Below are positions 407-19,341 of a stretch of 64,000 bases of DNA, piece after piece. This stretch comes from Polyangiales bacterium (GTDB lineage Bacteria > Myxococcota_A > Polyangia > Polyangiales > Houyiibacteriaceae), in NCBI GenBank assembly GCA_965227405.1, contig OZ245758.1, positions 1,705,693 to 1,769,692 of the forward strand, in the 5' to 3' direction. The stretch's first letter is position 1, and each line of letters starts with the position of its first letter. The position numbers were made by a program, and so were the translations under genes. The notes beneath the pieces are model-generated. The model was not told where the DNA came from and did not search any database. It saw only the letters and a program-made list of their open reading frames with translations.

Positions 407-436
407 GAACCCCCGAGAAAACAGCCGATTTTGAGG

Positions 437-474
437 CAGGTCCGGGTAAGCAGTAAACGCGTCCCAGGATTTAC
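437..474 (+). repeat. dispersed intergenic repeat, copy A (core CAGGTCCGGGTAAG-N7-AAACGCGTCCCAGGATTTAC)
   Basis: The same ~38-bp core recurs at 8007-8045 (+), 19302-19340 (+) and 19088-19129 (-). Confidence 0.6.
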
Positions 475-535
475 TCGTGCGCGGCGTCTTTGGGTTCGCT
501 GCCAGGATTTACTCGTGCGCGGCGTCTTTGGGTTC
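464..535 (+). repeat. perfect 34-bp tandem duplication (two copies separated by GCTG)
   Basis: CCAGGATTTACTCGTGCGCGGCGTCTTTGGGTTC occurs at 464-497 and again at 502-535. The second copy encodes the last 8 codons plus the stop of the VOC gene on the minus strand. Confidence 0.8.
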
Positions 536-985
536 CTCGCTTGTCGCAGCTGTACGTTCGTCGAGTTCGATCACGTTTCGGTCAGGATCTCGAATGAAGA
601 TCGCCGACAAACCTTTGAACTCGATGCTGCCCGTAATCGCAATGTCGTGTTTGGCGAGAAATGTCCGCACGGGTTCAAGCGCACTCACGCGCAACGCCAT
701 GTGCGTATAGCCCGGTGCTTTGTCCGCGACGTCCATCAACACGTTCTTCCCATCTTCGGGTGTTGTCGCCGGACCGAGAAGGTTCAGTACGATGCCGCAG
801 GGGTGCTGCATGATCACCGGGTGTCCTTGTTCAAACCCGCTTTCGGAACGCAGCTCAAAACCGAGAAGCGCATAGAACGCGATGGACCGCTGCTTGTCGC
901 GAATCCGAATCCCAACGTGATCCACCTTTTGAATGTCGATCATGACCACTCCACCAACTGCGTCCAATCCTTGAAGCTGGTCCAT
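509..985 (-). CDS. VOC family protein (glyoxalase / bleomycin-resistance / dioxygenase fold)
   Basis: 158 aa. The N-terminal IDHVGIRIRDKQRSIAFYALLGFEL is a typical VOC beta-alpha-beta-beta-beta start. Stop TAA at 509-511. Confidence 0.7.
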   Translation of the reverse strand: MDQLQGLDAVGGVVMIDIQKVDHVGIRIRDKQRSIAFYALLGFELRSESGFEQGHPVIMQHPCGIVLNLLGPATTPEDGKNVLMDVADKAPGYTHMALRVSALEPVRTFLAKHDIAITGSIEFKGLSAIFIRDPDRNVIELDERTAATSEEPKDAAHE

Positions 986-1785
986 CCGACGTCGGGATAG
1001 CTGCTCTGCAGCGAAGCAATGTCCACGCTAAAGCCGGTATTCGCGAACCACGCATACATCGTGGCCATGTCCTCAAACTGATCCCGCACCTCGTCGAGAC
1101 TCTGTTCTTGGTACTGAATCGACCGTCCAAACACCGTACCAAGCACATCCGCCATCTGTGGTCCGGTGATTTGGTCTGCCGCGATATCCACGTGTTTCCC
1201 CACAAACTGCGCCGCATTGGCGATGACGTACGCGACGAACTTGCCGATGTCTGCGGTCGAGATCATCTGGAGCGACACATCCGCAGGCAACGCTTGTCGC
1301 CACACGCCATCGCGTAGCGCCTGGATGTTCCAGGGGAACAACACGTTGTCATAGAAGAACGCCGGCGCGATCGATGTCCAAGGCACATCCAACGTTCGAA
1401 GGTGCTCTTCGATCTGGTGCTTGCTGTCGAAGTGCGGAATGCCAGTCTTGTTCTGTGCGTCGGCGACGGACGAAAACAAAATGTGCGCACCTGTTTGAGC
1501 GAGCGCATCCACAGCGGCACATCCGTGCACTACCTCTTGATCGACACCCGCTGCAGGTGTGGTCACCACGAACGCAAACTTCGTGTCTTTTCCGGCGTCG
1601 CTCACCGAACCCGAGTCTGCGAAATCGCCGCGGACAAGCACAGCTCCGGCCTGCTCGAGCGCGAGTGCTTTGGGTTTCGAAACGTCTCTCACCATCGCTC
1701 GAACATCGTGTCCTGCAGCGAGAAGTGCGCGCGCAACCGCGCCCCCCACATTTCCCGTCGCACCTGTAACTAGAACCAGACTCAT
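940..1785 (-). CDS. NmrA-family NAD(P)-binding protein (atypical SDR)
   Basis: MSLVLVTGATGNVGG Rossmann motif at the N-terminus. ATG at 1785 preceded by GGAGGT. Divergent from a LysR gene. Confidence 0.8.
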   Translation of the reverse strand: MSLVLVTGATGNVGGAVARALLAAGHDVRAMVRDVSKPKALALEQAGAVLVRGDFADSGSVSDAGKDTKFAFVVTTPAAGVDQEVVHGCAAVDALAQTGAHILFSSVADAQNKTGIPHFDSKHQIEEHLRTLDVPWTSIAPAFFYDNVLFPWNIQALRDGVWRQALPADVSLQMISTADIGKFVAYVIANAAQFVGKHVDIAADQITGPQMADVLGTVFGRSIQYQEQSLDEVRDQFEDMATMYAWFANTGFSVDIASLQSSYPDVGWTSFKDWTQLVEWS

Positions 1786-1823
1786 ACCTCCAGAGTGGGT
1801 TGACCTTCTGACCCGCACAAGAG

Positions 1824-1838
1824 ACGTTGTAGGAACGT
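1824..1838. promoter_or_regulatory. putative LysR-type binding box ACGTT-N5-AACGT
   Basis: Perfect 5-bp inverted repeat in the 80-bp divergent intergenic region between the NmrA and LysR genes. Confidence 0.35.
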
Positions 1839-1865
1839 TATGTCCCGAAATCGGGCCAGGACCAG

Positions 1866-2699
1866 ATGACGCGGTTTAGCGACGTGGACGTGTTTGTGGC
1901 CGTTGCCAAAGCGCGGTCGTTTCGTGCTGCTTCCGTTGAACTGGGCGTGAGCAAATCGACAGTAAGTCGAGCGATCGAACGGCTCGAAGCACATGTCGGC
2001 GCCGCGCTGGTGGTTCGCGATCGAAGTGGTCACCGGCTCACCGATGCAGGCGAGTCATACCTTCGTTACGCCGAGGACGCGTACCGTGCGTTGACCGAGG
2101 GTGAGCGTGCTGTCGCCGCGCTCGACACAACGCTGGAGGGGACCGTGCGCATGTCCGCTCCACCTGCGTTGGGCCCACTTCTCGTGTCGGAAGTGCTCAC
2201 CGAGTTTATGAAGCGTTATCCGCAAGTGGTGGTTGAACTGGCGCTGAGCGACGCGATGGTCAGCTTGGGCACGGAGCCGATCGACATCGCCGTCCGTGCT
2301 GGAGCACGGTTGGTGCGTTCGAATCAGCGCGCACATCGCTTGGCGCGGGTTCCGTTCCTGGCCGTCGCAACGCCTGGCTTGGCGAAGTCCTTGGACGGGT
2401 CCGCACCCTTGATCGAAGTAGGAACAACCAAGAAGCGACGCCGAGGAACGATCTGCCTGCGTGTAAACGACTTTGCAACCGCGAAGGCAGCGGCGCTTCA
2501 GGGCGTTGGTGTTGCAACACTCCCCGCGGTACTCGTCTCGCACGAGCTTCGCGCCGAACAGCTTGTGCAAGTGTTTCCGGATTGGTCGCTGCCCACCGCC
2601 AACTACTGGGCGGTCGTTCCGCGGGCCGGTGTGGCGCCGCGAGTGGCAGCGTTGCTCGACCATCTCAAGAGCGGGTTCGCGCGCCTCGCCAAAGACTAG
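1866..2699 (+). CDS. LysR family transcriptional regulator
   Basis: N-terminal HTH FVAVAKARSFRAASVELGVSKSTVSRAIERLE, followed by a substrate-binding domain of LysR length (277 aa). Confidence 0.85.
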   Translation: MTRFSDVDVFVAVAKARSFRAASVELGVSKSTVSRAIERLEAHVGAALVVRDRSGHRLTDAGESYLRYAEDAYRALTEGERAVAALDTTLEGTVRMSAPPALGPLLVSEVLTEFMKRYPQVVVELALSDAMVSLGTEPIDIAVRAGARLVRSNQRAHRLARVPFLAVATPGLAKSLDGSAPLIEVGTTKKRRRGTICLRVNDFATAKAAALQGVGVATLPAVLVSHELRAEQLVQVFPDWSLPTANYWAVVPRAGVAPRVAALLDHLKSGFARLAKD

Positions 2700-2801
2700 G
2701 TGTGGTCCAAAGGGCTCAAACGGCTGAAATTCCGAATGATCTCGGTAAGCGTAAAACGCTAGGTGTGGGAATTTCTCTACTCGTCCCCAGAATTCACCGG
2801 T

Positions 2802-3782
2802 TCACTCTGCGGGTTCGAAGCGGAACACCGGGGGTTCTTCGTGGGTGACTACGATCGCAGTCGTCACGATCGCTCCGGCAAGCAGAACGCCAAGGAGCGA
2901 TAGTCCTAAGCGCAACGCAGTTCGGCTTTCTTTCAGCGCCTCAACGGTACGTTGTGCACTCAACGCGTCGGTCTCGGTTCGATGGGCAAGACCCGTATGC
3001 AGGTTCAACCCTTCCGTCTCATCCGGCCGGACACGCACGATGATGTCCGCATCCAATGAGTCCGCGATCTCGCGCAGCGTGTCGTCCGAGAACTCGTAGA
3101 GCTGAGCCACGATCGTCTCGGGTGATGCCGCGGGCAAATCCACCTGCGTGGTTTCGGCTTCGGGATCCAACGAAAGCGAAAGCGAGCGTGACTCTCTCAA
3201 CGGCGCCGCAATCGTGAAGTGATGCCGCCCCGGAGCACCACGCGCCGTAATCGGAGCGTCTCCAACTTCGCGTCCGTTCATGCGCACCTGCGCTCCGCTT
3301 GGTGAGGTTGTAAACGCACGTGACGCAGGAGCACGCGATCGCGCCTCACGGGCCAACTCGGCGTAGCGTGCACGCACATCCGGAGGAAACGCGACCGGCG
3401 GCAACTCAGCGTCCGGCCTCAGACGAGCGGCTTCACGCAACGCTGTTTCGACCTCCTCGGGGTGTTCGAGGTTCGATTCGATCAACGCGCGGTACGCCCA
3501 AACCAAATGCAGCTGGTCAAAATCCGCTTCGGTTTCGCCGTCGGACTCCAACAACGACTGCGCTCGAGCCAGCTCTTCCAACGCCTGCGGGCTCTCGAAC
3601 GCCAACGCGTGTGCTCGCGCCGCTGCAAGATGAGGTTCGGCGCGTTGGGCCGCGGTCGCTGCAGGTTCGTGTTCGTCCACACGCCACTCGGCCTGCGTCT
3701 CTCCCTGTGCCTCGGGATGCGCGATCACCCACACGTTCGGTGCACCACAGCCCGCCAACAAGAGCGTGAACACGAACTTCAT
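2802..3782 (-). CDS. PEGA-domain lipoprotein with C-terminal transmembrane anchor
   Basis: MKFVFTLLLAGC lipobox. PEGA-like SGAQVRMNGREVGDAPIT...GRHHFTI. C-terminal hydrophobic LSLLGVLLAGAIVTTAIVV. Confidence 0.5.
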   Translation of the reverse strand: MKFVFTLLLAGCGAPNVWVIAHPEAQGETQAEWRVDEHEPAATAAQRAEPHLAAARAHALAFESPQALEELARAQSLLESDGETEADFDQLHLVWAYRALIESNLEHPEEVETALREAARLRPDAELPPVAFPPDVRARYAELAREARSRAPASRAFTTSPSGAQVRMNGREVGDAPITARGAPGRHHFTIAAPLRESRSLSLSLDPEAETTQVDLPAASPETIVAQLYEFSDDTLREIADSLDADIIVRVRPDETEGLNLHTGLAHRTETDALSAQRTVEALKESRTALRLGLSLLGVLLAGAIVTTAIVVTHEEPPVFRFEPAE

Positions 3783-5260
3783 CGCCAGTCCACGTCCCGG
3801 ACAAAGAGCCACGCAGAGCGCTCCGCGGCGATCACTGCTGCATCGAATGTGCTCACGCCACCGTGAATCAAAATGCTCTCATCATCGAGCTGCACCGCAT
3901 CGTGCAGAAGCATCAGTGGACCTGCAGGGTAGCTCACACTGTTCGCTTCGAGTGTCGCGGCTTGTGCCGTGCACGCACACGGGTCCACCGGAATGCGCAA
4001 GCCACTCCCTTCCCCAACCACCAGTAATTCATTCGGAAGCGCAAAACTGCGGTGGTAGGTGCGGGTCTCGGGCAGCGATGCGGTTCGACGCAGCACCCCA
4101 CCTTCCGGGCGGTCCAACCAACACCAAACGTCGTCCAGCTCGACTTCCTCTTCCACGCCCTCTTCCCGGATTACGCCGCCAACGACGTACACTGCACCCC
4201 CGCCTTGTTCGCAGGGCACGTACGTCGCGCTCATCTCTGCCCAGCCGAGCGGCGGTTCCGGATCGGTGTCCACATCAACGAAACACGGACTACCTTCGCA
4301 ATCGGTCAGGGCCAGTTCGAACAGCGGTCCGGGTTCTTCAAACAATCCACCAGCCAAGAACGCTCCACGTCCCAACGTCAGTGGTGCAACCGCTGGAAGA
4401 CTCCGAGCCACCCCTCCGGTCGCTTCGCGCGGCTCGAACGAGAACGTGTCGTCGTGCACTTCCATCCGCGAAAACGCGGGCATCAAGGGTGGCGCAGACG
4501 GCATCCCGCCAAAGAACGCCAACCCGTCCGCAAGAAGCACCGCGGCACTGGAACATCGCGGTGCAGCAAGCGGACGCGTGATCGGCGCAGCCTCGGGCGG
4601 CCACAACACTTCGATCGTTTCGTCGCATCCAAGAAAAGGATTTTGTCCACCGGCGATCAGGACTCGCCCATCGCGGAGCGTCAGTGTCGGCGCGAACAAA
4701 CGCTGCGTGGACAGTTCGCCGATCTCCACAAAGCGCCCACTGGTGATGTCGTAGCGCTCCACGACACGAACCGGGTTTGTCGGAACGAACGAAGCGTCCA
4801 ACATGGCAGCTCCACCCGCAATGATCGCTCCATCAACAGTCGCACTGATCGATTGAAGAAGGCGTGCGTGCACAGGCTGTCCACGCGTGGGCGCGATTTC
4901 GTCGGCACATCCGACTTGAACCGGAATCGTGTACGGCGGACCACGATGTTCGAAGTTCGCGCGTCCAACCGCACGCCGTCGCAACGCGCACACACCTTCA
5001 CGCGTCGACGCGGCAACCTCGAGTCGGTAGCGGCGCCCGTTCCGCAACACCCCGCCCTTCGCCAGATCGGCGAGCAGATCGCGGCCACGCGTTTCGACGA
5101 CCACCTCGTTACGCGCGTCGTACACCCGAAGGTCAACGTCGACGAAATCACGCTCCGGGTTGAGCCCCGCCGTCGGCACCATGCGAACCGAGATCACCTC
5201 CGGATCCGCACACGCGAGAAACAGGCAGAGCAGCACGCGCCACATGCGCGCAAGATACAC
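3779..5260 (-). CDS. Kelch-repeat beta-propeller lipoprotein
   Basis: Signal LLCLFLACA. Recurrent Kelch-like blades (GRVLIAGG, ILIHGG, YVVGG). 493 aa. Confidence 0.55.
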   Translation of the reverse strand: MYLARMWRVLLCLFLACADPEVISVRMVPTAGLNPERDFVDVDLRVYDARNEVVVETRGRDLLADLAKGGVLRNGRRYRLEVAASTREGVCALRRRAVGRANFEHRGPPYTIPVQVGCADEIAPTRGQPVHARLLQSISATVDGAIIAGGAAMLDASFVPTNPVRVVERYDITSGRFVEIGELSTQRLFAPTLTLRDGRVLIAGGQNPFLGCDETIEVLWPPEAAPITRPLAAPRCSSAAVLLADGLAFFGGMPSAPPLMPAFSRMEVHDDTFSFEPREATGGVARSLPAVAPLTLGRGAFLAGGLFEEPGPLFELALTDCEGSPCFVDVDTDPEPPLGWAEMSATYVPCEQGGGAVYVVGGVIREEGVEEEVELDDVWCWLDRPEGGVLRRTASLPETRTYHRSFALPNELLVVGEGSGLRIPVDPCACTAQAATLEANSVSYPAGPLMLLHDAVQLDDESILIHGGVSTFDAAVIAAERSAWLFVRDVDWR

Positions 5261-6032
5261 CGGCGCTCACCTCGATTCCCATGCGTTGCAAGGGTTCGAC
5301 GACAGAACGCTGAACCGCACGACGCGCCGACTCTGCCCACTCGCTTGCGGTCATCCAGCCCAGCGCGTGCACCAAACTTGGATCGACAGGGTCGGGAGGA
5401 AGGTTCTGAAGTTGTTGCAGCTGCTGATCGAGTGCTTGCTGCGCAACTTCGCCTAACCGCGCACGCATCGTTTCGTCGGGTTGCGCCCACTCGAGGATCC
5501 ACCAACCCAGCTGCGAATGCGGAGCTTCATCTCGGACGATCCGATCGAGCACCGCACGGATCACGGGATGCGTCGAGCACGCTCGGGTTCCGGCGAGAAC
5601 CGGAAGGCTGAAGGCCTCGCCCACACAACACGTACGTACTGCGATCGCCAGCGCTTGCTCCAACGCAGAGCCGGGCATCTTGGGCGTCACCTTCAGGTCA
5701 ACCGGCGGCGAGATGCCACCACCGAGCGCTAGAGCGATACGCGTGTTGAGCTCCACGTGGAACATCTCGTCCGCGACAAACGAACCTGCGCATGCGACCA
5801 AGTCGATCGGAGCACCGGCTTCCAGCAACGAGGTTTGCAGTGTCGCAAACGCTGCCGCGGAGCAGTACTCCTGGTACGCACCGTATGTCCACGCAGCGCG
5901 TGCTGCGGTGACAAAGGGTTCGGGGTACGCACTGGGATCGAGCGACGCGAAGTCCACATCAAGTGAGCGCTCCCGACGCACACGCCGTTCAGCTGCACCT
6001 CCGAACCAGCCAACGCGGAACGGCTCACCCAT
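5148..6032 (-). CDS. hypothetical protein, possible ferritin-like / di-iron fold
   Basis: Two E-x-x-H motifs (ADEMFH, RDEAPH) in predicted helices. Overlaps the downstream Kelch ORF by ~100 nt, so one of the two starts is probably mis-set. Confidence 0.4.
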   Translation of the reverse strand: MGEPFRVGWFGGAAERRVRRERSLDVDFASLDPSAYPEPFVTAARAAWTYGAYQEYCSAAAFATLQTSLLEAGAPIDLVACAGSFVADEMFHVELNTRIALALGGGISPPVDLKVTPKMPGSALEQALAIAVRTCCVGEAFSLPVLAGTRACSTHPVIRAVLDRIVRDEAPHSQLGWWILEWAQPDETMRARLGEVAQQALDQQLQQLQNLPPDPVDPSLVHALGWMTASEWAESARRAVQRSVVEPLQRMGIEVSAGVSCAHVARAALPVSRVCGSGGDLGSHGADGGAQPGA

Positions 6033-6210
6033 CGTTGCTGGGATAGTTCGGGCGCTTGAAGTTCCCGACGGGGGGCGGCGGTTCCTCTTCGGCTTCGTCG
6101 CGTTCTTCTTGCCGCGGTTCTTCGGGCTCTTGTTCAGGTTCTGCGGCGTGTGCAGATGCGCCCCATGAAGAGGCTGCGAGGGTCGCGATCATCAACCAGC
6201 GTGAGGACAT
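6025..6210 (-). CDS. small acidic secreted protein
   Basis: 61 aa. Signal peptide MIATLAASSWGASAHA followed by a Glu/Pro-rich tail. Its stop overlaps the ATG of the next gene (gATGggTGA). Confidence 0.3.
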   Translation of the reverse strand: MSSRWLMIATLAASSWGASAHAAEPEQEPEEPRQEERDEAEEEPPPPVGNFKRPNYPSNDG

Positions 6211-6352
6211 GCCTAGAACCTAGTGCGCATAATCCCCTGTGTTGTCAGGGTTTCGTAAAGGTCGGCCCGAACTGCAGCGTGTCTGCGCACAGCGCTTGCA
6301 ACGTCTCCTCAATTGGTCCGAGCGCTGACACAGCTCGGCACAAGGAGGAAAT

Positions 6353-7163
6353 GATGCGACGTATTCTCGGATGGCTTTTGATCGCGGCACTTGGTGCTTG
6401 CGGATCCGAGGTTCCTGACGCCGGTAACGAACTCGTTTTGAATGACGAAGCCGTCGGACTGGGATTCAACGCGATGGGCATCACCACCAGTCCAGAAGGA
6501 CAGGTCTTCTTGCTTGCCGGCAACCAAGTCTTTGAGCGCATCGAGGGCGAGTGGACGTCGCGGTGGAGCGCCGAAGCTGGCACACCGATTCTCCAAGACA
6601 TCGTCGCACTGGGTGAAGACCGCTTTGCATTGACCACACGCAACATGGGCTTTGAACTCTTCTTGGAGAGCGGCGAGCTGGTTCAGCACTTCTGCTACAT
6701 CCCCGGCGACGACATTCGCGAAGAGGATCCGCCGCAGACCCCGACGCCGACGGTCGAGATCAGCCGCAGTGTGGCCTACGCGGTTGAAGAGAACCTGATC
6801 GTGGCCAACCCGCAAACGATCACCGATGACGTTCGTCAGCGCCCGATGTTCTCCGAGGTCGCGATCTTTGATCGCACCAGTGGTGAGGAACTGCAGTTCC
6901 GCAACCTTCGTGACGCGGACTTCTCTGCGGGTGGACTCGCCGTTCTCGACTTCCCGACGCTTCTTGCGGGCGACGGTTCGATGCTGGTCGAGATCGACTT
7001 CAACACGGGTGACAAGCGTCGCTTCTTGGGTCTTGCTGGCCTCGGCATTGCGGAGATCGAGGGTCTGGCCATCGATCGTGAGGCAGGCGAATTGCTCGTT
7101 CTTGACGGGGTTTCGCAGCGTCTTGTGACGCTGAACCTGGACCAGGTGGAGGCTGCGCGATGA
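6353..7163 (+). CDS. lipoprotein, tandem paralog 1
   Basis: MMRRILGWLLIAALGACGSE lipobox. About 70% identical to the next gene across the full length. Confidence 0.7.
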
Positions 7164-7957
7164 AGCGTCTTTCCTTCCTGATTGTGCTGCTCGCTGCGTG
7201 TGGTTCGAACGTTCCGCAGGGTGGTGATGAACTGGTTCTCGATGATCGTGCAATGGAACTCGAAGCGCGTGTTCAGGGGATTACGAGCGCGAACGGCGTC
7301 GTCTACGCGTTGGGCGACAACAGCGTGTTTCGTCGCATCGAGGGTGAGTGGTCACGCGTTTGGACCGCGGAACCGGGCGTGCTCGAACTCTTGGATATTG
7401 TGGCGCTTGGCGATGAGCGTTTCGCTCTGACGACTCGCAATATGGGATTCGAGCTGGACTTGAGCACCGGTGCGTTGACCGAGCACTTTTGTTACGAGCC
7501 TGGCGACATTCCGCGTGACCCCGTTCCGCAGCAACCGCAACCGACGGTCGAGATCAGCCGGAGTGTGGCGTACGCCGCCGAAGAGAACCTGATCGTCGCG
7601 AACCCGCAGACGGTCACTGACGATGTTCTTCAGCGAGGCGTGTTCTCGGAGGTTGCGATCTTTGATCGTACGTCCGGTGAGGAGCTGCGATTCGTGAACT
7701 TGCGCGATGCGGAGTTCTCCGCGGGCGGATTGGTCGTCTTGGATTTCCCGACGTTGATCGCCGGAGAAGGCTCGACGCTCGTCGAGATCGACTTCGAGAC
7801 CGGCAACAAGCGCAACTTCCTCGGACTTGGTGGGCTGAACATCACCGCCATCGATGGACTCGCGATCGATCGTGAAGCCAACGAGCTGCTCGTCTTGGAT
7901 GCAGCCACCCAACGCTTGGTGACCCTGGACCTCGAGCAGGTTCTGCGCGCTCGCTGA
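7160..7957 (+). CDS. lipoprotein, tandem paralog 2
   Basis: MKRLSFLIVLLAACGSN lipobox. ATGA overlap with paralog 1. Shared blocks include DIVALG-ERFALTTRNMGFEL and VEISRSVAYA.EENLIVANPQT. Confidence 0.75.
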   Translation: MKRLSFLIVLLAACGSNVPQGGDELVLDDRAMELEARVQGITSANGVVYALGDNSVFRRIEGEWSRVWTAEPGVLELLDIVALGDERFALTTRNMGFELDLSTGALTEHFCYEPGDIPRDPVPQQPQPTVEISRSVAYAAEENLIVANPQTVTDDVLQRGVFSEVAIFDRTSGEELRFVNLRDAEFSAGGLVVLDFPTLIAGEGSTLVEIDFETGNKRNFLGLGGLNITAIDGLAIDREANELLVLDAATQRLVTLDLEQVLRAR

Positions 7958-8006
7958 TTTTTGGGCTCGTTCCGAAAAAGCGCCTTGGATTTGGCGGTTT
8001 TTCGAG

Positions 8007-8054
8007 CAGGTCCGGGTAAGTACTACACGCGTCCCCAGGATTTACCTGGGGACG
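8007..8054 (+). repeat. dispersed repeat copy B, extended into a perfect hairpin CGTCCCCAGG-ATTTA-CCTGGGGACG
   Basis: Core matches copies A, C and D. The 10-bp arms at 8030-8039 and 8045-8054 are exact reverse complements. Lies 35 bp upstream of the MBL gene start. Confidence 0.6.
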
Positions 8055-8088
8055 TAAACGCGTCGGGGCGACTGTAGACTACGCGTGA

Positions 8089-8988
8089 GTGCAACGCTTT
8101 CTGCCCGAACACGTTCCGCCCGAGCGTCTGCATCCGCAGGGCGCACCTGGGGACGGGCTGCGTATTCGTTGGCTCGGCACAGCCGGTCACGTGGTGCAAA
8201 GCGGGTCCACAACCGTTCTGCTCGATCCCTTTCTCTCCCGTCCCGGGTTACTCGCAACCGGCTTTGGACGACTGCGTCCCAATCCCGACGCGTGGTGGCG
8301 TTGGATCCCAAAGTCCGTCGACGCAATCGCCTGCGGGCACAGCCACTACGACCACATCATGGACGCGCCGGAGATCGCCAAGCGGACCGGCTGTTTGCTC
8401 ATGGGTTCGCGTACGACGCTTAGCTTTGCCCGCGCACATGGGGTTGCCGAGTCCCAACTTCGAGAAGTTCCCCCAAGCGGCGCCGTCCTTCGCGTCGGCG
8501 ACATCGACATACGTTTCGTCCCAAGCCTTCATGGACGCATCGCCGCAGGACGCGTACCTCTACCCGGCGAAGTACACAGTCCGCCCAAACTTCCAGCGCG
8601 TGTCTTCCACTACCGGATGGGCGGTGCGTTTGGCATCCACCTCACAACACCGTGGGGTCGCGTCTATCACAACGGCAGTGCTGACCTTGTGGACGCAGAG
8701 CTCCAAGGCCTGGGCGCGGAAGTCATGCTGGTCGGGCTGGCGGGTCGACAAGCGACGCCTTTCTACCTGCCCCGCATGCTTGGCATCTTGAAACCTCGCT
8801 TCGTGATCCCGACGCACCACGATGCCTTCTTTGCTCCTTTAGACGAAGGCGTGAAGCTGCTGCCGAGCATCGATCTGCCAGGCTTCCTGAAGCAGGTTGC
8901 CGCGATCGACCACCGAGTCGACGTTCGGCTCCCCACGTACGAGAGCATCTGTCGAATCAACGACCACGCGGTCTTTCACTCGCGCTAA
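8089..8988 (+). CDS. MBL-fold metallo-hydrolase
   Basis: HxHxDH-type motif ACGHSHYDH and a later HHD motif. GTG start at 8089. Confidence 0.7.
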   Translation: MQRFLPEHVPPERLHPQGAPGDGLRIRWLGTAGHVVQSGSTTVLLDPFLSRPGLLATGFGRLRPNPDAWWRWIPKSVDAIACGHSHYDHIMDAPEIAKRTGCLLMGSRTTLSFARAHGVAESQLREVPPSGAVLRVGDIDIRFVPSLHGRIAAGRVPLPGEVHSPPKLPARVFHYRMGGAFGIHLTTPWGRVYHNGSADLVDAELQGLGAEVMLVGLAGRQATPFYLPRMLGILKPRFVIPTHHDAFFAPLDEGVKLLPSIDLPGFLKQVAAIDHRVDVRLPTYESICRINDHAVFHSR

Positions 8989-9120
8989 GGCCAGAATCCC
9001 TGTGCAAGACAGGGACAATCGTGAGGCGTATTTTTCTGAAAATCGCGTGATGGATTTGTGAGCCTGCGTCCACGAAGAGAGTGAAGACACCGAGCTTCGT
9101 GTCTGACAACTAGGTTTGAT

Positions 9121-9163
9121 TGCCCGGTAGATCCACTGGATTTGCCGGGCATCTTTTTGTTTG
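9121..9163 (+). terminator. rho-independent terminator candidate
   Basis: TGCCCGG, a 15-nt loop, then CCGGGCA followed by TCTTTTTGTTTG. Lies 133 bp after the MBL stop. Confidence 0.5.
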
Positions 9164-9278
9164 AAATCCATGTTTTACGGATTTGAGACGGACCCGCACA
9201 CTGGCACAAAGCGGCATTCAAAAACTCAATGAATCAGGCTCAAACCAGTTGGAACGGGACGTGCTCAATGAGGACACC

Positions 9279-10400
9279 ATGATGCGCTCCACACAACTTC
9301 CGCTCCTTACTCTTTTGGCGTTGCCACTCATTGTCGGCGCCGACGAATGCGAATCCGATCCGCCCGACGAATGTATCTGCACCGCAGACTACGCTCCGGT
9401 CTGCGGTGTCGACGGCGAGACGTACAGCAACGCTTGCGAAGCCAGCTGCGCGATGGTCGAGATCGAACACGAGGGTGAGTGCACCCCTGATCCGATGCTC
9501 TGCTTTGACGACGGCGACTGCGCCGCGGGCAACTACTGCGACCACGACGAGTGCTTGAGTCCCTGCGAAGAAGGCGAAGTCTGCCCCGCTGTTTGCTACG
9601 GACAATGCGAACCCATTCCCCATCCCTGGTGCGAAACCGACGCGGACTGCGAAGCGGGCTTCGTCTGCAACGCAACGTGCTCCGCGCTTCCCTGTGAAGG
9701 CGAAGGCTGTGATGAGCTTCCGCCCAGCTGCACCGGCATCTGCGAGCCGGAACCGACATGCATCTGCCCCGATATTTGGGCTCCGGTCTGTGGCGCCGAT
9801 GGCGTGACCTACGGCAACGGCTGCGAAGCAGAGTGTGCGGGTGTCCCCGTCAACCACGAAGGCGAGTGTCGCCATGACTGCGTGTGCCCGGACATCTGGG
9901 CTCCGGTTTGCGGTGCAGACGGCAACACCTACGGCAACGGTTGCGAAGCCGAGTGCGCCGGTGTGCCCGTGGAATACGACGGTGAGTGCCGCCACGACTG
10001 CATCTGCCCCGATGTGTGGGCTCCTGTCTGCGGTGCGGACGGACACACCTACGGCAACGAATGTGAAGCGTCGTGCGTGGGCGTGAGCATCGAGCACGAA
10101 GGCGAGTGCGGCGGATGCGCATGCCCGCGCGTGTACGATCCGATTTGCGGATCGGACGGCAACACCTACAGCAACCCGTGTGAGGCACGCTGCGCCGGGG
10201 TCGAGATCGACTACCACGGCGAATGCCGGACCGATCCGCCTCCTCGCGAAACCTGTTACAGCGACGAGGACTGTCGTGGCGGCTACTGCGACCTCTCAGT
10301 CTGCCTCGATCCCTGTGAGCCTGGTGAGGCGTGCCCCGACGTGTGCGTAGGATTGTGCACCTACGATGGCGGCGAGCCTCCGCCCGTTCCAGAAGCATGA
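9279..10400 (+). CDS. secreted protein with five tandem Kazal-type inhibitor domains flanked by Cys-rich modules
   Basis: Signal MMRSTQLPLLTLLALPLIVGA. Five repeats of C-x6-PVCG-DG-TY-N-C-E-x-C-x9-C. The N- and C-terminal modules (CFDDGDCAAGNYCDHDEC... and CYSDEDCRGGYCDLSVC...) resemble each other. Confidence 0.7.
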   Translation: MMRSTQLPLLTLLALPLIVGADECESDPPDECICTADYAPVCGVDGETYSNACEASCAMVEIEHEGECTPDPMLCFDDGDCAAGNYCDHDECLSPCEEGEVCPAVCYGQCEPIPHPWCETDADCEAGFVCNATCSALPCEGEGCDELPPSCTGICEPEPTCICPDIWAPVCGADGVTYGNGCEAECAGVPVNHEGECRHDCVCPDIWAPVCGADGNTYGNGCEAECAGVPVEYDGECRHDCICPDVWAPVCGADGHTYGNECEASCVGVSIEHEGECGGCACPRVYDPICGSDGNTYSNPCEARCAGVEIDYHGECRTDPPPRETCYSDEDCRGGYCDLSVCLDPCEPGEACPDVCVGLCTYDGGEPPPVPEA

Positions 10401-10403
10401 CCT

Positions 10404-10431
10404 GACGTGATGTTCAGGACGTGATGTTCAG
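10404..10431 (+). repeat. tandem 14-bp direct repeat (GACGTGATGTTCAG x2)
   Basis: Perfect repeat immediately after the Kazal stop codon. Confidence 0.7.
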
Positions 10432-10470
10432 CGCCGGCACGCTTCTCGTGTCGGCGTTGACGCGTCTTAT
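10432..10470 (+). terminator. hairpin, possible terminator
   Basis: CGCCGGCACG, loop CTTCT, CGTGTCGGCG (one G-U wobble pair), then T-containing TTGACGCGTCTTATT. Confidence 0.3.
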
Positions 10471-10500
10471 TCGAGATCGACGAGACGAATCGGTACCATT

Positions 10501-13452: not shown

Positions 13453-14288
13453 GCGTTCGGCGTCTGGCCGATTGGCGCGTGCACCCTGTGGTGTTCGGCG
13501 GGATGAACCTGTCGATCGAAGGACGCCCACAACGAGCCCAAGCGATCGAGACGATTCGCGCCGCACGCGACGCAGGTTGTCAGGTGTTCGATACCGCCGA
13601 CGTCTACGGACTGCCTGGTGAGCCGCACCACAACGAAGCACTCTTACGCGAAGCACTCGGTTCGGACGCGCGCATCATCACCAAGGGTGGTGTGCGACGC
13701 GTTGGAGATGCGTGGGAGCACCATGCTCATCCCGACGATCTCGAGGCTGCGTGCGAACGTTCGCTTCAGACATTGGGGTCGTTCGAGCTGTATCAGCTGC
13801 ATGCCGTCGACGAGAACGTGCCGATCGAAGAAAGTGTCGGCGCACTGTCGAGACTTCGCGATCGCGGTTGGTTTCAACACATCGGCGTGTCGAACGTGAG
13901 TTTCGAACAAGTTCAACGCGCATGCACGACAACCACGATCGTGAGCGTGCAGAACGAAGCATCTCCTTTTGTTGCGCCGGATACTCGCGTCCTCTCGTAC
14001 TGCGAAGAACAGGAGATCGCGTTTCTCGCGTATGCGCCAATGGGAGGTTGGCGCGCAGGACAAACCGCGCACCTACCCGCGCTTCAGCGTGCGGCTCAAA
14101 GCGTTGGGTGTACGCCCTTTGAGGTTGTTGTGCGTTGGTTGCTCGCGGTGTCCCCCAACCTGCTTCCCGTGTGCGGCGCGTCGACACCCATCAAAGCCAC
14201 ATCGAGCATTCGGCAGTCCGAAGCGCTGGATACCGACTTGGCCGATGCTTTGACGCGCGAATTGTGGCAACCGTTGCGGGCGCGATAG
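13449..14288 (+). CDS. aldo/keto reductase
   Basis: ATG overlaps the Hsp70 stop (ATGA). Motifs DTADVYG, ...LREAL..., and QLH...IGVSN are typical of AKR. Confidence 0.75.
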   Translation: MSVRRLADWRVHPVVFGGMNLSIEGRPQRAQAIETIRAARDAGCQVFDTADVYGLPGEPHHNEALLREALGSDARIITKGGVRRVGDAWEHHAHPDDLEAACERSLQTLGSFELYQLHAVDENVPIEESVGALSRLRDRGWFQHIGVSNVSFEQVQRACTTTTIVSVQNEASPFVAPDTRVLSYCEEQEIAFLAYAPMGGWRAGQTAHLPALQRAAQSVGCTPFEVVVRWLLAVSPNLLPVCGASTPIKATSSIRQSEALDTDLADALTRELWQPLRAR

Positions 14289-14298
14289 GGTTGCCACG

Positions 14299-15414
14299 AT
14301 GGCGATTGAACGCATCGGTATTCTCACGGGTGGTGGTGACTGCCCCGGTTTAAACGCAGTGATTCGCGCAGCGGTACGTGTCGCCAAAGCGCGTTACGGC
14401 TGGGAAGTGTTCGGAATCGAAGACGCGTTCAACGGCTTGGTCGATCTCGAGTACAAGGCGCCCCGCGGCAACCGATGGCTCGAACTGAGCGACGTGCGCG
14501 GGATCATCGAACAGGGCGGAACGATCCTCGGCACATCGAACAAGAGCGATCCCTTTCAGTACATTTCAGAGGGTCGCGCGATCGATGTGTCGGATCGCGT
14601 GATGGCCAACTACGAGAAGATGAAGCTCGACGCGATCATCTCGATTGGTGGCGACGGTTCGATGTTGATCGCGCAGCGCTTCATCGAGAAGGGAATGAAG
14701 ATCGTGGGTGTGCCCAAGACGATCGACAACGACCTTGCTGGGACCGATCAGACGTTTGGTTTCGACACGGCACTCAACGTTGCAACCGAGGCTATCGATC
14801 GCATTCGCGACACCGCAGAGAGTCACGATCGCGTGATGGTTGTCGAGGTCATGGGGCGCGACGCAGGTTTCATTGCGCTACATGCCGGAATGGCGGCGGG
14901 CGCAGATGCGATTCTGATCCCGGAGATCCCGTACAAAGTGAAGCCGCTGGCGCAGATGCTTCACGAGAGGCGAGCAAACGGGAAGCACTACAGCATCATC
15001 GTGGTCGCTGAAGGCGCGCGTCCCGTGGATGGAGAAGCGAGTGTTCTCGAGCACAAGCTCGGTGAAATGCGGCGTTTGATGGGCGCGGGCCACCGGTTGG
15101 CGCAACAACTTGGCGAACTCACCGACGCGGACATGCGCGTCACGGTGTTAGGTCATATCCAACGTGGTGGGGCACCGAGTGCGTTTGATCGCGTGCTGGG
15201 AACACGTTTTGGTGAAGCCGCGGCGCATCTCGTCGCGCGCGAGAAGTTCAACCATATGGTGGCGTTGCGCGGGGGTTCGATCGTAGAGGTCCCGATTGCA
15301 GATGCGGTGTCGACCCCTAAACGCGTCGAACCGATGGGCGAGCTGGTATCCACCGCTCGAGCCATCGGTATTCGGTTTGGCGACGGGGGAACGAGTCAGA
15401 CCATTCGCCCCTGA
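14299..15414 (+). CDS. pfkA: ATP-dependent 6-phosphofructokinase
   Basis: IGILTGGGDCPGLNAVIRA, GGDGS, and VGVPKTIDNDL are canonical PfkA motifs. Confidence 0.85.
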   Translation: MAIERIGILTGGGDCPGLNAVIRAAVRVAKARYGWEVFGIEDAFNGLVDLEYKAPRGNRWLELSDVRGIIEQGGTILGTSNKSDPFQYISEGRAIDVSDRVMANYEKMKLDAIISIGGDGSMLIAQRFIEKGMKIVGVPKTIDNDLAGTDQTFGFDTALNVATEAIDRIRDTAESHDRVMVVEVMGRDAGFIALHAGMAAGADAILIPEIPYKVKPLAQMLHERRANGKHYSIIVVAEGARPVDGEASVLEHKLGEMRRLMGAGHRLAQQLGELTDADMRVTVLGHIQRGGAPSAFDRVLGTRFGEAAAHLVAREKFNHMVALRGGSIVEVPIADAVSTPKRVEPMGELVSTARAIGIRFGDGGTSQTIRP

Positions 15415-15427
15415 ACGCGTCGTTCAG
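15411..15427. terminator. 17-nt palindrome CTGAACG-CGT-CGTTCAG shared by convergent stops
   Basis: Overlaps the pfkA stop and the stop of the minus-strand small ORF. No T-tract. Confidence 0.25.
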
Positions 15428-15609
15428 ATCTGGTCGTGCGTCCACTCGACGAGGCGTCGTGTGGTCTCGTCGCGGTCTTGATCGCGAAGCTTCGTGCGCA
15501 ACGTCGTGGTGACGAAGGCGTCGAGACTTGTGCCTTCACCTTCGGCTGCAGCGACGAGGCGGGCGAGAAGTTCGTGGTCGATGGCGAGTGAAAGCTTCTG
15601 CGTCTGCAT
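15424..15609 (-). CDS. small ribbon-helix-helix-like (antitoxin-like) protein
   Basis: 61 aa. LSLAIDHELLARL...GTSLDAFV resembles an RHH/CopG-type N-terminus. No cognate toxin ORF is evident. Confidence 0.35.
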   Translation of the reverse strand: MQTQKLSLAIDHELLARLVAAAEGEGTSLDAFVTTTLRTKLRDQDRDETTRRLVEWTHDQI

Positions 15610-15772
15610 GGGTCGGCCACGCTAACAGCCGAACCGAAAACGGACTTGCAAAGCGCGTGAGGTTTCCCATTGGCGCGACGCGTCATGAGCGAGCGTTCAG
15701 AATTCGAGCGTGCGTTGGTGCGTGTTGTGGACAGTTTTGCGAGCGCCCTAAACCGCTGAAACACAAGGGGAA

Positions 15773-16858
15773 TTGAGCGGTTCGCAAGCAAGCAAAGAGG
15801 CGTGTTTCGACGTACAATTGAACGTGGATTTTGTAGACGCTGTTCGTGCGCGACCAGGGATGTACGTCGGTGGAGCCGACGCGTTCGGTTTGCACCACAT
15901 GCTTTGGGAAGTTGTCGCGAACTCGCTGGACCAACACCTGATCGGTCACGCGAGTCACATCGACGTTCGAACGCACGACGACGGGAGCATCGAAGTTTGC
16001 GACGACGGTGCGGGCATTCCGATGACGCAGTTCGACAACGGCGATGGATTTCTCGAGCGCGCGATGACGACTTTTCGATCCGATGCAACTTTCGACGATC
16101 ACGCACCCCACTTGCACCTCACTGGAGGCGGAACGGGGTTGATGCCCATCTGCGCGCTTTCCGAATGGATCGACGTGGAGGTGTGCAGGAGCCAACGCCG
16201 TTTCCATCAGAGATTCGAGCGAGGACGCGTTGCTTCTGAACTCATCAAACTCGGGCCCTCACAGAGATCTGGCACAAGCGTTCGATTCAAACCCGACAAG
16301 TCCATTTTTGAGGCCGCGACCTGGGACGTCGATCGAATTCAGGAACGGCTCCACCAACTCTGCGCACTGATGCCGGGTCTCCGTGCATCGCTCAACGATC
16401 AGCTCTTCGGCCCGAGCGAACTTCGGGATTTGTTGGAGGGGGATGCATCTCTGGCTGGACCGTTCGAGATTGTGGCTTCGCACGATCTGATGACAGTTCG
16501 GCTCGTGATGTGTTGGTCCGATCGTAATGATCGCGCCGGCAACAGTGTCCGTAGTTTCGCGAACGCCATGCAGACGAAAGAGGGCTCGCACGTTCGTGGA
16601 TTCATGGAAGGATTAGCCGCTGCAATGGTTCGGTTGGGAGCGAGAAAGGGTTCGTGGGTGGATGCCTTCGAACATCTCTCTCGCGGAATGAGCGCCGTCA
16701 TCAGCGTCATGTTGATCGACCCAAGCTACGGCGCTCCAACACGTGATCGTCTTGTTCATCCTCGGGTGCGCGAGTTGATCAAGCGCACCGTTGCTGAACA
16801 ACTCCCTGCACAACTACCAGCGACGATGCGCGACGAACTGCTATCGCGTCTGCGCTGA
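15773..16858 (+). CDS. GyrB N-terminal paralog (GHKL ATPase + transducer domain only; no Toprim or C-terminal domain)
   Basis: VRARPGMYVGG...GLHHMLWEVVANSLD...DDGAGIP aligns to GyrB residues ~1-390. The protein ends where the GyrB 43-kDa fragment ends. Catalytic-loop residues are substituted (QTK becomes PTR, GLHGVG becomes GGTGLM). Confidence 0.7.
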   Translation: MSGSQASKEACFDVQLNVDFVDAVRARPGMYVGGADAFGLHHMLWEVVANSLDQHLIGHASHIDVRTHDDGSIEVCDDGAGIPMTQFDNGDGFLERAMTTFRSDATFDDHAPHLHLTGGGTGLMPICALSEWIDVEVCRSQRRFHQRFERGRVASELIKLGPSQRSGTSVRFKPDKSIFEAATWDVDRIQERLHQLCALMPGLRASLNDQLFGPSELRDLLEGDASLAGPFEIVASHDLMTVRLVMCWSDRNDRAGNSVRSFANAMQTKEGSHVRGFMEGLAAAMVRLGARKGSWVDAFEHLSRGMSAVISVMLIDPSYGAPTRDRLVHPRVRELIKRTVAEQLPAQLPATMRDELLSRLR

Positions 16859-16891
16859 CTTCGGGACGTGGCCAGCATTCCGCTTCGCTCT

Positions 16892-16927
16892 GGAAGCTCG
16901 GAGGCTCGGAAGCTCGGAAGCTCGGAC
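16892..16927 (+). repeat. 10-bp microsatellite (GAAGCTCGGA-like, ~3.5 units)
   Basis: GGAAGCTCGGAGGCTCGGAAGCTCGGAAGCTCGGA, intergenic. Confidence 0.6.
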
Positions 16928-16970
16928 AACACAGGCCTAGGCGACGATACCGATATTGTTTCTAAGTCAG

Positions 16971-17002
16971 CCAAGTGACCAAACCAGTCTTTGGTCGCTT
17001 GG
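16971..17002. terminator. 13-bp-stem hairpin between convergent genes (bidirectional terminator candidate)
   Basis: CCAAGTGACCAAA, loop CCAGTC, TTTGGTCGCTTGG (one G-U wobble). AAAAAA tract nearby. Confidence 0.4.
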
Positions 17003-17050
17003 CACGTCTTTGAGTCTTCGAAAAAATAGATGGTCTCCCAGAACTACCCG

Positions 17051-18931
17051 CTACTCAGCAGGCGGCGGCTCCTCTTCGGTTCCACCCAGCGTAAACGAGA
17101 GATAACCACTCTCATCCGCAACAACCTCGGACACGCTCAGCGGGACACCCAGGTCCGGCAGCGTGATCGCCAGTCCGTCGAGCAGACCACTGATCTGACT
17201 GCCAACGATTCCTTTGAGCGCACCTTCGAGGCCACGCACCGACGCGGGTCCAAGCTCAACACGCGGCGACTCGAGCAACCACACGTGCGTGGTACTGGCT
17301 TCGGATACGTAGACCGGAACAACTTCGCCTTCGCCACCCTCGAGTGAGAGACCCATCTCGATGTGGGTTCCGAACACGAAGAGCGTCTCACCGCCCGCGC
17401 GAATGGTGAGCTTCAGTTCGCCAAGTCCAATGAACACATCCGGATCGACTTCGAGCTCGCTTCCTTCAACGGGTTGCGCCGCAGCCCAGCTGATCGGAGC
17501 AAGCTCTGCATCGATGTCGATCTCCAGAGGCGTGGCGTCGTCGAACGTACCGGGCGTGTAGAGCGTGCGAAGTTCGCGCGCGAGAATCGCGAGAGCACCA
17601 ACGTTGAGGAACGCGCTCGCAGACTCATCTGCATCCGCGGTCAGGTCGTCGATCTGCAGTGCACCACCACCCCAGGCACCGTGAAGCAGCTGACCGACAA
17701 GACCTGGATCCAAGTAGAGCGTGCCTGGTGCAGCTGCTGGAGCAGTGGGCGGCAAGTGCGGTGCACCCGGTGCCGTCGGACCACCACCGGGACCGGTCAC
17801 ACTCGCACCGACGGTGGCCATCAGCACGCCATCCACCGGCTCCAGTCCCGTCAGGCAGAGCGCGACTTCCATCGGCACATCGAAGAACGCCATCTCCTCG
17901 GTGACGTCGAGAATGTTGATGTCCATGTCGAGGAAAGGACCGATGAGGTCGTTCACCATGGGCTGAAGCTGACCCTCCATCTTGTCCGCGATGCTGCCCT
18001 CCACGAGCTCGCCGATGATCTCGCCGCCCAAGCCAATGATGGTACCGATCAACCCGCTGCCTCCGCTGAGACGCAAGTCCAGATCGAACGAGGTGAGTTC
18101 GACGGTAACGTCGTCGGCTTCGAAGCGCGTAACGCACTCACCGGGGGCGGGCGGCAATGCGCGAAGCGGCACGTGAACCTCAACCGTGATCTGATCCGCT
18201 TCGCTGTTCGGACGAACCGTGACCGTCTGGCCAATCGCGTTGCACTGTCCCTGGAAGCCGACCGCTACGTCGGGAAGAATGACCGTGAGATCCAGCCGAC
18301 CATCTTCGAGAACGGATGCAGAGATCTGAAGCTCACCGTGGCTGACCCGGTTCACGTAGAGCTGGCACATGTCGTCGTTGATCAACTCGCTTCCGGGCGG
18401 AAGCTCTGAAGCCAGGTCGATGTCACCCCCCAAAAGGTCACCGACACTCCCGGCGAGCCCGGAGAGAATCTCGTCGTTGAGCGCGATCACTGCCGCGCCG
18501 CTGTTGCGTTCACCTTCGGGCACGTAGGCGGAGCGAAGCAGTGAGCGGTGGCCACTGACCGAGTGACCTTCGATGTCGTGTGCGCGAAGCTCGACTAAGT
18601 TGAGACCCGGCTCGACGACAGCCGTGGCGGTGAAGCTTCCGTCGGCAGCCGTGGGCACGGTGGTGGGCGGGTCACCTGCTTCAACGCGATCCAAGCCCAA
18701 GCTGGCGCGGGCTTCACCCGTGATCGGAAGGTCCGTCGACTCGAGCCGACCGTAGGGGTCCGTGCTGGAGGTATCGAGAACCAGCGAGTACCCACCTGGC
18801 CCAAGCGGGTCCATCGGAACCACGGGAGGATCCTCGCCGGGCGGGTCTTCGCCGAAGCGGTCTGTCTCGACCACCGAACTCGCCGTTCCCACACATCCGA
18901 AGAGCCCCAGAAGCACCAACCATCGCGTCAT
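17051..18931 (-). CDS. secreted hypothetical protein (626 aa)
   Basis: MTRWLVLLGLFGCVG signal and lipobox. Gly/Asp/Leu-rich with no recognised domain. Confidence 0.55.
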   Translation of the reverse strand: MTRWLVLLGLFGCVGTASSVVETDRFGEDPPGEDPPVVPMDPLGPGGYSLVLDTSSTDPYGRLESTDLPITGEARASLGLDRVEAGDPPTTVPTAADGSFTATAVVEPGLNLVELRAHDIEGHSVSGHRSLLRSAYVPEGERNSGAAVIALNDEILSGLAGSVGDLLGGDIDLASELPPGSELINDDMCQLYVNRVSHGELQISASVLEDGRLDLTVILPDVAVGFQGQCNAIGQTVTVRPNSEADQITVEVHVPLRALPPAPGECVTRFEADDVTVELTSFDLDLRLSGGSGLIGTIIGLGGEIIGELVEGSIADKMEGQLQPMVNDLIGPFLDMDINILDVTEEMAFFDVPMEVALCLTGLEPVDGVLMATVGASVTGPGGGPTAPGAPHLPPTAPAAAPGTLYLDPGLVGQLLHGAWGGGALQIDDLTADADESASAFLNVGALAILARELRTLYTPGTFDDATPLEIDIDAELAPISWAAAQPVEGSELEVDPDVFIGLGELKLTIRAGGETLFVFGTHIEMGLSLEGGEGEVVPVYVSEASTTHVWLLESPRVELGPASVRGLEGALKGIVGSQISGLLDGLAITLPDLGVPLSVSEVVADESGYLSFTLGGTEEEPPPAE

Positions 18932-19087
18932 GCCTTGGATAGTGCAAACCCCGGACCAGCAAGGGATTTCGACCAATAGTCGTAATATCGGACCAACCCG
19001 CGAAGCCTGTTTCGACGTTTGTAGACCGCGGGGTCACAAGACCCGGTCCCCCCACCCCGTCCCATTCTGGCAGAGGTAATTTTGGGG

Positions 19088-19129
19088 AGGTGAATTCTGG
19101 GGACGGTGAAACTGCTTACCCGAACCTGC
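19088..19129 (-). repeat. dispersed repeat copy D (inverted orientation)
   Basis: The reverse complement reads GGCAGGTTCGGGTAAGCAGTTTCACCGTCCCCAGAATTCACC. Confidence 0.55.
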
Positions 19130-19301
19130 CCATAAACAGCCACGAAACATTGGGCTTTACTGAGTTCTACCCAAAAACCACTGATCCCAGAGGAGCGATA
19201 ATTCGTGGCGCAACGGCTACGGACGTGGTCGCAAACCAGTCGTTGGGCTTCATTTTTGCGTGGGTTTTCAAACAGCTCCGCACTTTCGGGCGATATCAGA
19301 G

Positions 19302-19340
19302 CAAGTCCGGGTAACTAGTAAACGCGTCCCCAGAATTCAC
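19302..19340 (+). repeat. dispersed repeat copy C
   Basis: CAAGTCCGGGTAACTAGTAAACGCGTCCCCAGAATTCAC, abutting the radical SAM gene stop. Confidence 0.55.
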
Positions 19341-19341
19341 T

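Follow-up and report, generated by a model that had tools for sequence, protein, structure and literature searches.

Small repeats recur between the genes of a 64-kb stretch of a Polyangiales bacterium genome (contig OZ245758.1, positions 1,705,693 to 1,769,692). We refer to this whole stretch as the window, and all positions given without a contig or locus name are window positions. It has a G+C content of ~60%, lies on a 9,074,070-bp contig, and carries genes typical of Polyangia-type Myxococcota, such as an AmmeMemoRadiSam system and Kelch, PEGA, Kazal and DUF1552 proteins; the closest match in GTDB is a Polyangiaceae metagenome-assembled genome at 65% protein identity. The original prediction listed four repeat copies, which we call A (437-474, plus strand), B (8007-8045, plus), C (19302-19340, plus) and D (19088-19129, minus), and all four were recovered. 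In the 64-kb window the pattern CGTCCCCAGRATTYAC occurs four times against 0.13 expected, GTCCGGGTAAG with at most one mismatch four times against 0.48, and CGTCCCCAG seven times against 0.68, and B, C and D match GGGTAAS-N9-CGTCCCCAG exactly. When hidden Markov models (HMMs) of the whole unit were built with one copy left out, each of A to D was found again at E-values from 3e-9 to 7e-15, with alignments covering nearly all 97 model positions. These four repeats are real, and chance does not account for them. A further, degenerate copy, E (2701-2798), was absent from the earlier list, and a possible sixth, F, also degenerate, lies at ~43903-43945 on the minus strand (HMM E-value 0.04-0.6). 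The window thus holds five or six copies, five of the six clustered within 19 kb.

Every copy falls in the ~10% of the DNA that is non-coding, so the claim that all are intergenic is borne out at a coding density of ~90% (first 20 kb). Open reading frames (ORFs) overlapping the units have no Pfam match, and units of ~95 nt, or 254 nt for the one doublet described below, are small and without coding capacity.

The unit is longer than the 38 bp first proposed. In A to D a weakly conserved left half of ~55 nt precedes a core of ~40 bp, which gives a unit of ~95 nt. The well-conserved core occupies the rightmost ~40 bp and reads GCAGGTCCGGGTAAG, a variable 6-nt spacer, then ACGCGTCCCCAGRATTYAC; we call the two conserved blocks box 1 and box 2. 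The seven-nucleotide spacer of the earlier consensus has to be corrected, as the variable stretch from GGGTAAG to ACGCGT is 6 nt and the literal consensus has no match even with three mismatches. The element ends can be written as being of the GTGAATTCTGGGGACGCG...GCAGGTCC type. A repeat search lengthens the core leftward by ~13 nt (family D5), and further to the left the alignment contains the ordered blocks TTTTTGGG, AAAGCNCC, TTTCGGGCGNTTT and GAGCAGG. On its own the left half detects itself weakly, and its homology emerges only in the full-unit leave-one-out alignments. The longest exact stretch common to any two cores in the window is 19 nt.

Unit A (382-475, plus strand; core 435-474) is recovered with a leave-one-out E-value of 8e-12 and has the most diverged left half of the four good copies. 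Unit B (7953-8046, plus; core 8005-8045; E-value 4e-14) begins directly past the TGA of the gene at 7160-7957, and its left half holds a hairpin, AAAAAGCGCC..GGCGGTTTTT, in which a stem is flanked by an A-tract and a T-tract. Unit D (19088-19181, minus; core 19088-19129; E-value 3e-9) and unit C (19247-19341, plus; core 19302-19340; E-value 7e-15) are neighbours in inverted orientation. Unit E (plus strand) takes up the whole 102-nt spacer that separates a LysR-family gene (stop 2697-2699) from the PEGA gene convergent with it (stop 2802-2804). It has an exact box 2, CGTCCCCAGAATTCAC, at 2782-2797 and a box-1-like CTCGGTAAG near 2742, with ~20 nt inserted between them, and only its box-2 part is recovered by the leave-one-out models (E-value 0.001-0.04). 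Possible unit F has its core at 43903-43941, reads CGGTAAACGAGTTTACCTGTCCCTAGGGTTTAC, and sits in a convergent spacer 20 nt past the stop of a DUF3095 gene.

Many of these units reach the ends of genes. On their left, B and E directly adjoin the stop codon of a plus-strand gene. On the core side, A, C and E come within 0-4 nt of the stop codon of a minus-strand gene: the core of C ends 1 nt from the TGA (19342-19344) of the radical SAM gene, the core tip of E is 4 nt from a stop codon, and at A the element tip has been duplicated, with the TAA of a glyoxalase-family gene (509-511, minus strand) inside the duplicate. In all, five of ten unit ends are within 4 nt of a stop codon. The description of the copies as close to gene starts therefore holds for B, 43 nt upstream of a metallo-beta-lactamase-fold gene, and for D, 111-156 nt upstream of a 641-aa gene, but not for A, C and E, whose cores abut stop codons, E lying between convergent genes.

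D and C together form an inverted doublet with the cores facing outward (19088-19340, 254 nt). Its outer tips are a perfect terminal inverted repeat, GTGAATTCTGGGGACG, matching at 16 of 16 positions, and its 43-nt arms are 77% complementary (pair I1). A 260-nt segment containing the doublet folds as a long single-stranded DNA hairpin with a z-score of -4.7. There is one such doublet against three or four single copies, and the numbers are small.

The box-2 tip of the unit is a hot spot for small rearrangements. At B, the perfect palindrome noted in the original prediction, CGTCCCCAGG-ATTTA-CCTGGGGACG, is exact at 8030-8054 and is made from B's own box 2. It is followed at 8055-8087 (plus strand) by scrambled partial core pieces, GTAAACGCGTC and TAGACTACGCGT; ACGCGT occurs three times within 60 nt here, compared with 82 times in the whole 64 kb. 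At A, a tandem duplication with a 38-nt period (464-501 and 502-539; 34 nt, 100% identical, family D17) joins the last 11 nt of the unit, CCAGGATTTAC, to the last eight codons and stop of the glyoxalase-family gene, so that the functional TAA of this gene lies within an element-derived GTAAAT. An inverted partial tip is found inside E, and a degenerate extra tip, CCAGAATGGGA, beside D. Rearrangements of this kind at A, B, E and D are the expected residue of repeated cleavage, or of hairpin formation, at an element end.

Comparison with related genomes indicates that the element was inserted. The relatives are metagenome and SRA assemblies of ~66% G+C, in which orthologues of the proteins flanking the units are 78-88% identical. 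Loci L003 and L005-L008 span the PEGA gene to PFK, whereas L014 and L015 cover the stretch from Memo to the radical SAM gene inclusive, with L014 continuing into the orthologue of the 641-aa gene. Neither the HMM nor the box patterns found the unit in loci L002-L008, L014 and L015, which amount to about 35-40 kb of distinct related sequence, and the region is syntenic with the relatives apart from the units. At the C/D site of L014 and L015, where the radical SAM protein is 85-88% identical, the sequence immediately after the TGA aligns with the window from position ~19061 leftward, in descending coordinates. A segment of ~280 nt (19062-19341), consisting of the D+C doublet and ~27 nt with a degenerate third tip, is thus found in the window against an empty orthologous site in two relatives, and is best read as an insertion. 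It begins within 1 nt of the radical SAM stop codon, and the spacer at this place is 118 nt in L014. None of the relatives compared at the B site carries the unit: the spacer of L003 measures 45 nt there, and L005-L008 have an additional gene.

Several other differences between the window and the relatives lie next to the units. The extra gene at the B site encodes 375 aa in L005 (10838-11965), between a pair of paralogues and the metallo-beta-lactamase-fold gene; in the spacer of L003 (10808-10852) it is cut to its first ~25 nt, and in that of the window (7958-8088) its place is taken by unit B. The spacer before the metallo-beta-lactamase-fold gene thus appears to be a hot spot for gene loss and insertion. 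The paralogues upstream of it (6150-7163 and 7160-7957) are a tandem pair with no Pfam match, in which a 300-nt stretch is 76% identical and the first stop overlaps the second start; the pair is kept in the relatives (~70% and ~80% identity). Beside E, the PEGA-domain protein ends in ...FRFEPAE* in the window (2802-2816) and in ...FRVE* in L003 (5661-5675), a gene end remodelled by three codons. The radical SAM gene beside C (AmmeMemoRadiSam, 19342-20403, minus strand) has an in-frame TGA at 19612-19614 (...FRMRDKP*TPAST...). Its orthologues have Arg at this position (DKPRTP), which would equal a CGA-to-TGA change, and beyond it the frame remains open for another 83 codons, up to the normal stop. 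A nonsense mutation or pseudogene, or else a sequencing error, would account for it.

A second strain of the same species is represented by an 18.8-kb Logan contig (sample SRR23272290) that shares 97.8-98% identity with the window. In this sister strain B and D do not differ from the window (D at 100%), and neither does C in the part that can be read, apart from two substitutions in its left half. Copy A reads CCC where the other copies read CCCC, and the sister strain has CCCC at A as well, so the window carries a 1-nt deletion in this C run. At E the sister strain is short of a further 5 nt, and it carries the 464-539 duplication with two differences. Copies in decay are thus A (the 1-nt deletion), E (an internal insertion and a strain-specific 5-nt deletion) and F (degenerate).

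The ends of the sister contig are informative as well. It begins at window position 439 and ends at 19334, both inside cores (those of A and C). Logan assemblies use k=31. As the cores in the window have at most 19 exact nucleotides in common, breaks at these two places point to at least two more copies elsewhere in the genome, matching A and C over ~30 nt, the variable spacer included.

The exact pattern has no match in GTDB species genomes, JGI metagenomes or viral contigs. A looser pattern gave four JGI metagenome matches, which resemble the repeat nowhere beyond the pattern and which we therefore attribute to chance. Among plasmids, distant-mode BLAST returned no match, and the translated core (QVRVSSKRVPRIY frame) returned unrelated repeat proteins only from 1.8 billion proteins. 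A coding origin had been considered from a three-base periodicity of the core substitutions, but there are only four variable sites, two frames fit equally, and the overlapping ORFs are those without a Pfam match.

The repeat is therefore a multi-copy sequence confined to non-coding DNA, present in two strains of one species, absent from the orthologous sites of relatives, and decaying at several copies. We consider that it is probably (roughly 60%) a lineage-specific family of small, non-coding, non-autonomous insertion elements in the class of MITEs (miniature inverted-repeat transposable elements) and REPINs, the latter being inverted pairs of repetitive extragenic palindromic (REP) sequences. 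Among the options raised by the original prediction, the REP/MITE-like element fits best: it accommodates the copy number, the intergenic placement, the empty sites, the inverted doublet, the decaying copies and the breaks of the sister contig, and fails to bring with it a target-site duplication or significant terminal inverted repeats on single units. The ~40-bp core may be the end that is recognised by an enzyme, transposase or recombinase, whose gene would lie elsewhere in the 9.07-Mb genome. The mobile form would probably be the inverted doublet with its cores outward, as at 19088-19340, and the single units A, B, E and F would be half-elements or decaying remnants.

Known systems resemble the family in part. 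Two published accounts describe MITEs as non-coding, multi-copy elements of 50-800 bp, overwhelmingly intergenic, whose transposase is encoded elsewhere (PMC11602168, PMC3184786). The repeats share with the Correia elements (CREE) of Neisseria, RUP of Streptococcus pneumoniae and ERIC of enterobacteria their small size, lack of coding capacity, copy number and intergenic placement. MITE-like too are the doublet at 19088-19340 with its terminal inverted repeats of more than 15 bp, the lineage-specific distribution and the empty orthologous site. Unlike typical MITEs, which have a 2-10 bp target-site duplication, the repeats show none, their single units lack significant terminal inverted repeats, and their conservation is strongly asymmetric. 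The family also has no known cognate insertion sequence and no similarity to any library searched.

In REPINs, two conserved sequences are inverted around a less conserved spacer and can form a long hairpin, single copies resemble remnants, and a route leads from REPIN doublets to palindromes holding one REP (PMC3116915). Counterparts in that scheme exist for the D+C doublet, for A, B and E as single units, and for the palindrome at B. However, a REP is a short (20-40 bp) imperfect palindrome that forms a G+C-rich stem-loop, whereas the 40-bp core here can form only an interrupted helix of eight pairs, weak and reliant on G-U pairing. At 254 nt the doublet is longer than a REPIN (~100 nt), single units are no more decayed than the doublet members, and there is no RAYT gene in the window. 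REPIN-RAYT systems are also usually old and vertically inherited, while this family is missing from relatives at 80-88% protein identity. The mycobacterial interspersed repetitive units (MIRUs) offer a different parallel. They are intercistronic units that occupy short spacers and abut the flanking stop codons, and they form tandem arrays within operons, with small ORFs overlapping the neighbouring genes. The units described here likewise fill short spacers and reach flanking stop codons, but they are single or inverted, occur between convergent genes as well, and have no consistent frame relative to their neighbours.

Several results weigh against a family of MITE/REPIN-like insertion elements. 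No consistent direct repeat was found at any copy, and the empty-site comparison permits a target-site duplication of 1-2 nt at most. MITEs have terminal inverted repeats of at least 10-15 bp; in single units these match at 7-10 of 15 positions, which is not significant (p 0.37-0.83 for A to C, 0.015 for D). Pairwise identity is 77-86% in the core and 45-62% in the left half. The sizeable ORFs of the window have no transposase, integrase or RAYT domain, and no unit is present in one and absent from the other of the two strains compared. Finally, the cores of A to D have no substitution in ~150 nt, against an average of 2.1% between the strains (p ~0.04), which weakly hints at constraint, or at homogenisation by gene conversion, rather than at neutral junk. 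We have filed the family as working like MITEs and REPINs, with no proven membership in either, because of the missing target-site duplication, the lack of terminal inverted repeats on single units, the non-palindromic core, and the asymmetry between core and left half. The sequence family is new, but its kind is an ordinary one.

The first alternative places the function at the RNA level. The unit would be a 3'-UTR or terminator module that terminates or stabilises the upstream transcript, or a small multicopy RNA released from it; read on the opposite strand, the core is followed by the hairpin flanked by A- and T-tracts. The position of A, C and E agrees with this, since their cores start 0-4 nt past the stop of a co-oriented gene, and so does the absence of substitutions in the cores between strains. 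The left half can form the A-tract/stem/T-tract hairpin, with six pairs kept through double changes in four sequences. However, the hairpin is convincing in B alone (A5, a 4-bp G+C stem, T5), and no unit is among the 15 terminator-like sites of a terminator scan. Folds of single units on either strand have z-scores from -2.0 to +1.1, differ among the copies, and are no better than those of shuffled sequences. For the consensus, the folding energy is -7.6 kcal/mol on one strand and -8.9 kcal/mol on the other, and covariation contributes next to nothing to it. Neither B nor D lies downstream of a co-oriented gene, and the unit is absent from orthologous 3' ends in the relatives. Rfam gave no match at E-values up to 5 apart from two at chance level. 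The small structured RNA suggested by the original prediction is thus not supported: the four to five sequences at hand, which give low power, yielded no shared fold backed by covariation, and there is no Rfam match and no conservation of the motif across species. We regard an RNA-level role as unlikely.

In a second alternative the element would be no classical MITE but an asymmetric sequence of ~95 nt without terminal inverted repeats or target duplications, whose core would be a constrained protein-binding site and whose insertion would be precise, beside stop codons, as when the doublet entered an ancestral spacer of 118 nt within 1 nt of the radical SAM TGA. We consider this quite improbable. 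The precise placement beside stop codons and the invariant 40-bp core are nevertheless a residue that insertion elements of the MITE/REPIN class leave unexplained. If targeting of stop codons were true, a new mechanism would be implied, such as the integration of single strands at gene ends in the manner of HUH-type or IS110-like enzymes. Alternatively, the unit may have been domesticated as a 3'-end module.

The copies could also be scars of recombination, that is, remnants of attachment or resolution sites, or copies made by gene conversion or duplication, with no dedicated transposase. The lack of target duplications and of clear terminal inverted repeats on single units is what such scars would leave, and the local tandem and inverted duplications at the tips and the clustering of the copies point the same way. 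Against this, the surroundings hold neither an integrase or recombinase gene nor a tRNA gene, and their composition is not island-like (a search for tRNA and tmRNA genes found none in the window), the region is syntenic with the relatives except for the units, and the doublet is inserted cleanly at a stop codon. We therefore give recombination scars little credence.

The weakest alternative, a shared site at which a transcription factor or alternative sigma factor would bind, as an operator or promoter module, with the B palindrome as the full dyad and the flanking genes co-regulated, could draw on the two conserved blocks around a variable 6-nt spacer, which resemble a bipartite protein site, on the distances of B (43 nt) and D (111-156 nt) from gene starts, on a LysR-family regulator encoded nearby and on the invariance of the cores between strains, but it is very unlikely, as E lies between convergent genes and the cores of A, C and E face gene 3' ends, neither orientation nor distance to start codons is consistent, only B has dyad symmetry, a consensus scan places no sigma-70-like promoter at any unit, relatives lack the motif upstream of their orthologues of the metallo-beta-lactamase-fold and 641-aa genes, and the flanking genes are functionally unrelated. 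On these same observations, the operator suggested by the original prediction is not supported.

A number of specific identities were considered and rejected. Sigma-54 (GG-N10-GC) and ECF (AAC-N16-CGT) promoters do not fit in their spacing, judged by inspection. In a Tn3-family 38-bp inverted repeat the GGGG would be internal and the TAAG on the wrong strand, and the GTAAGCG motif, which would suggest IS66-type ends, is flanked left and right by conserved sequence. Integron attC sites were set aside for lack of RYYYAAC/GTTRRRY core sites and of cassette-like genes, and a type I toxin-antitoxin locus was rejected for want of a small hydrophobic ORF with a start codon. An orphan CRISPR repeat, a dif/Xer site and a parS half-site were considered and dropped, and the spliceosomal-looking GTAAGT...CAG is a coincidence.

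Two genes of the window are worth recording apart from the repeats. The gene at 9183-10400 encodes five Kazal-type protease-inhibitor domains, which correspond to 117-120-nt DNA repeats (families D1 and D2). The GyrB-like HATPase gene at 15773-16858 has no nucleotide-level match over its first ~300 codons between the window (15855-16681) and L009 (11606-12664), while the flanks are ~98% identical; the proteins of the two strains are 54% identical overall, and their last ~60 residues are identical. Judged from this comparison, the gene appears to be a sharply dimorphic or replaced allele.

The repeat family explains why short-read assemblies of the species break at the cores. It also marks several gene 3' ends and short spacers as remodelled, with one stop codon lying inside an element tip and one convergent spacer made up wholly of the element. 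The finding would carry greater weight only if the preference for sites near stop codons, or the constraint on the 40-bp core, held genome-wide. Small dispersed repeats are poorly catalogued in Myxococcota, and a defined family such as this one would mark recent genome dynamics and aid strain typing.

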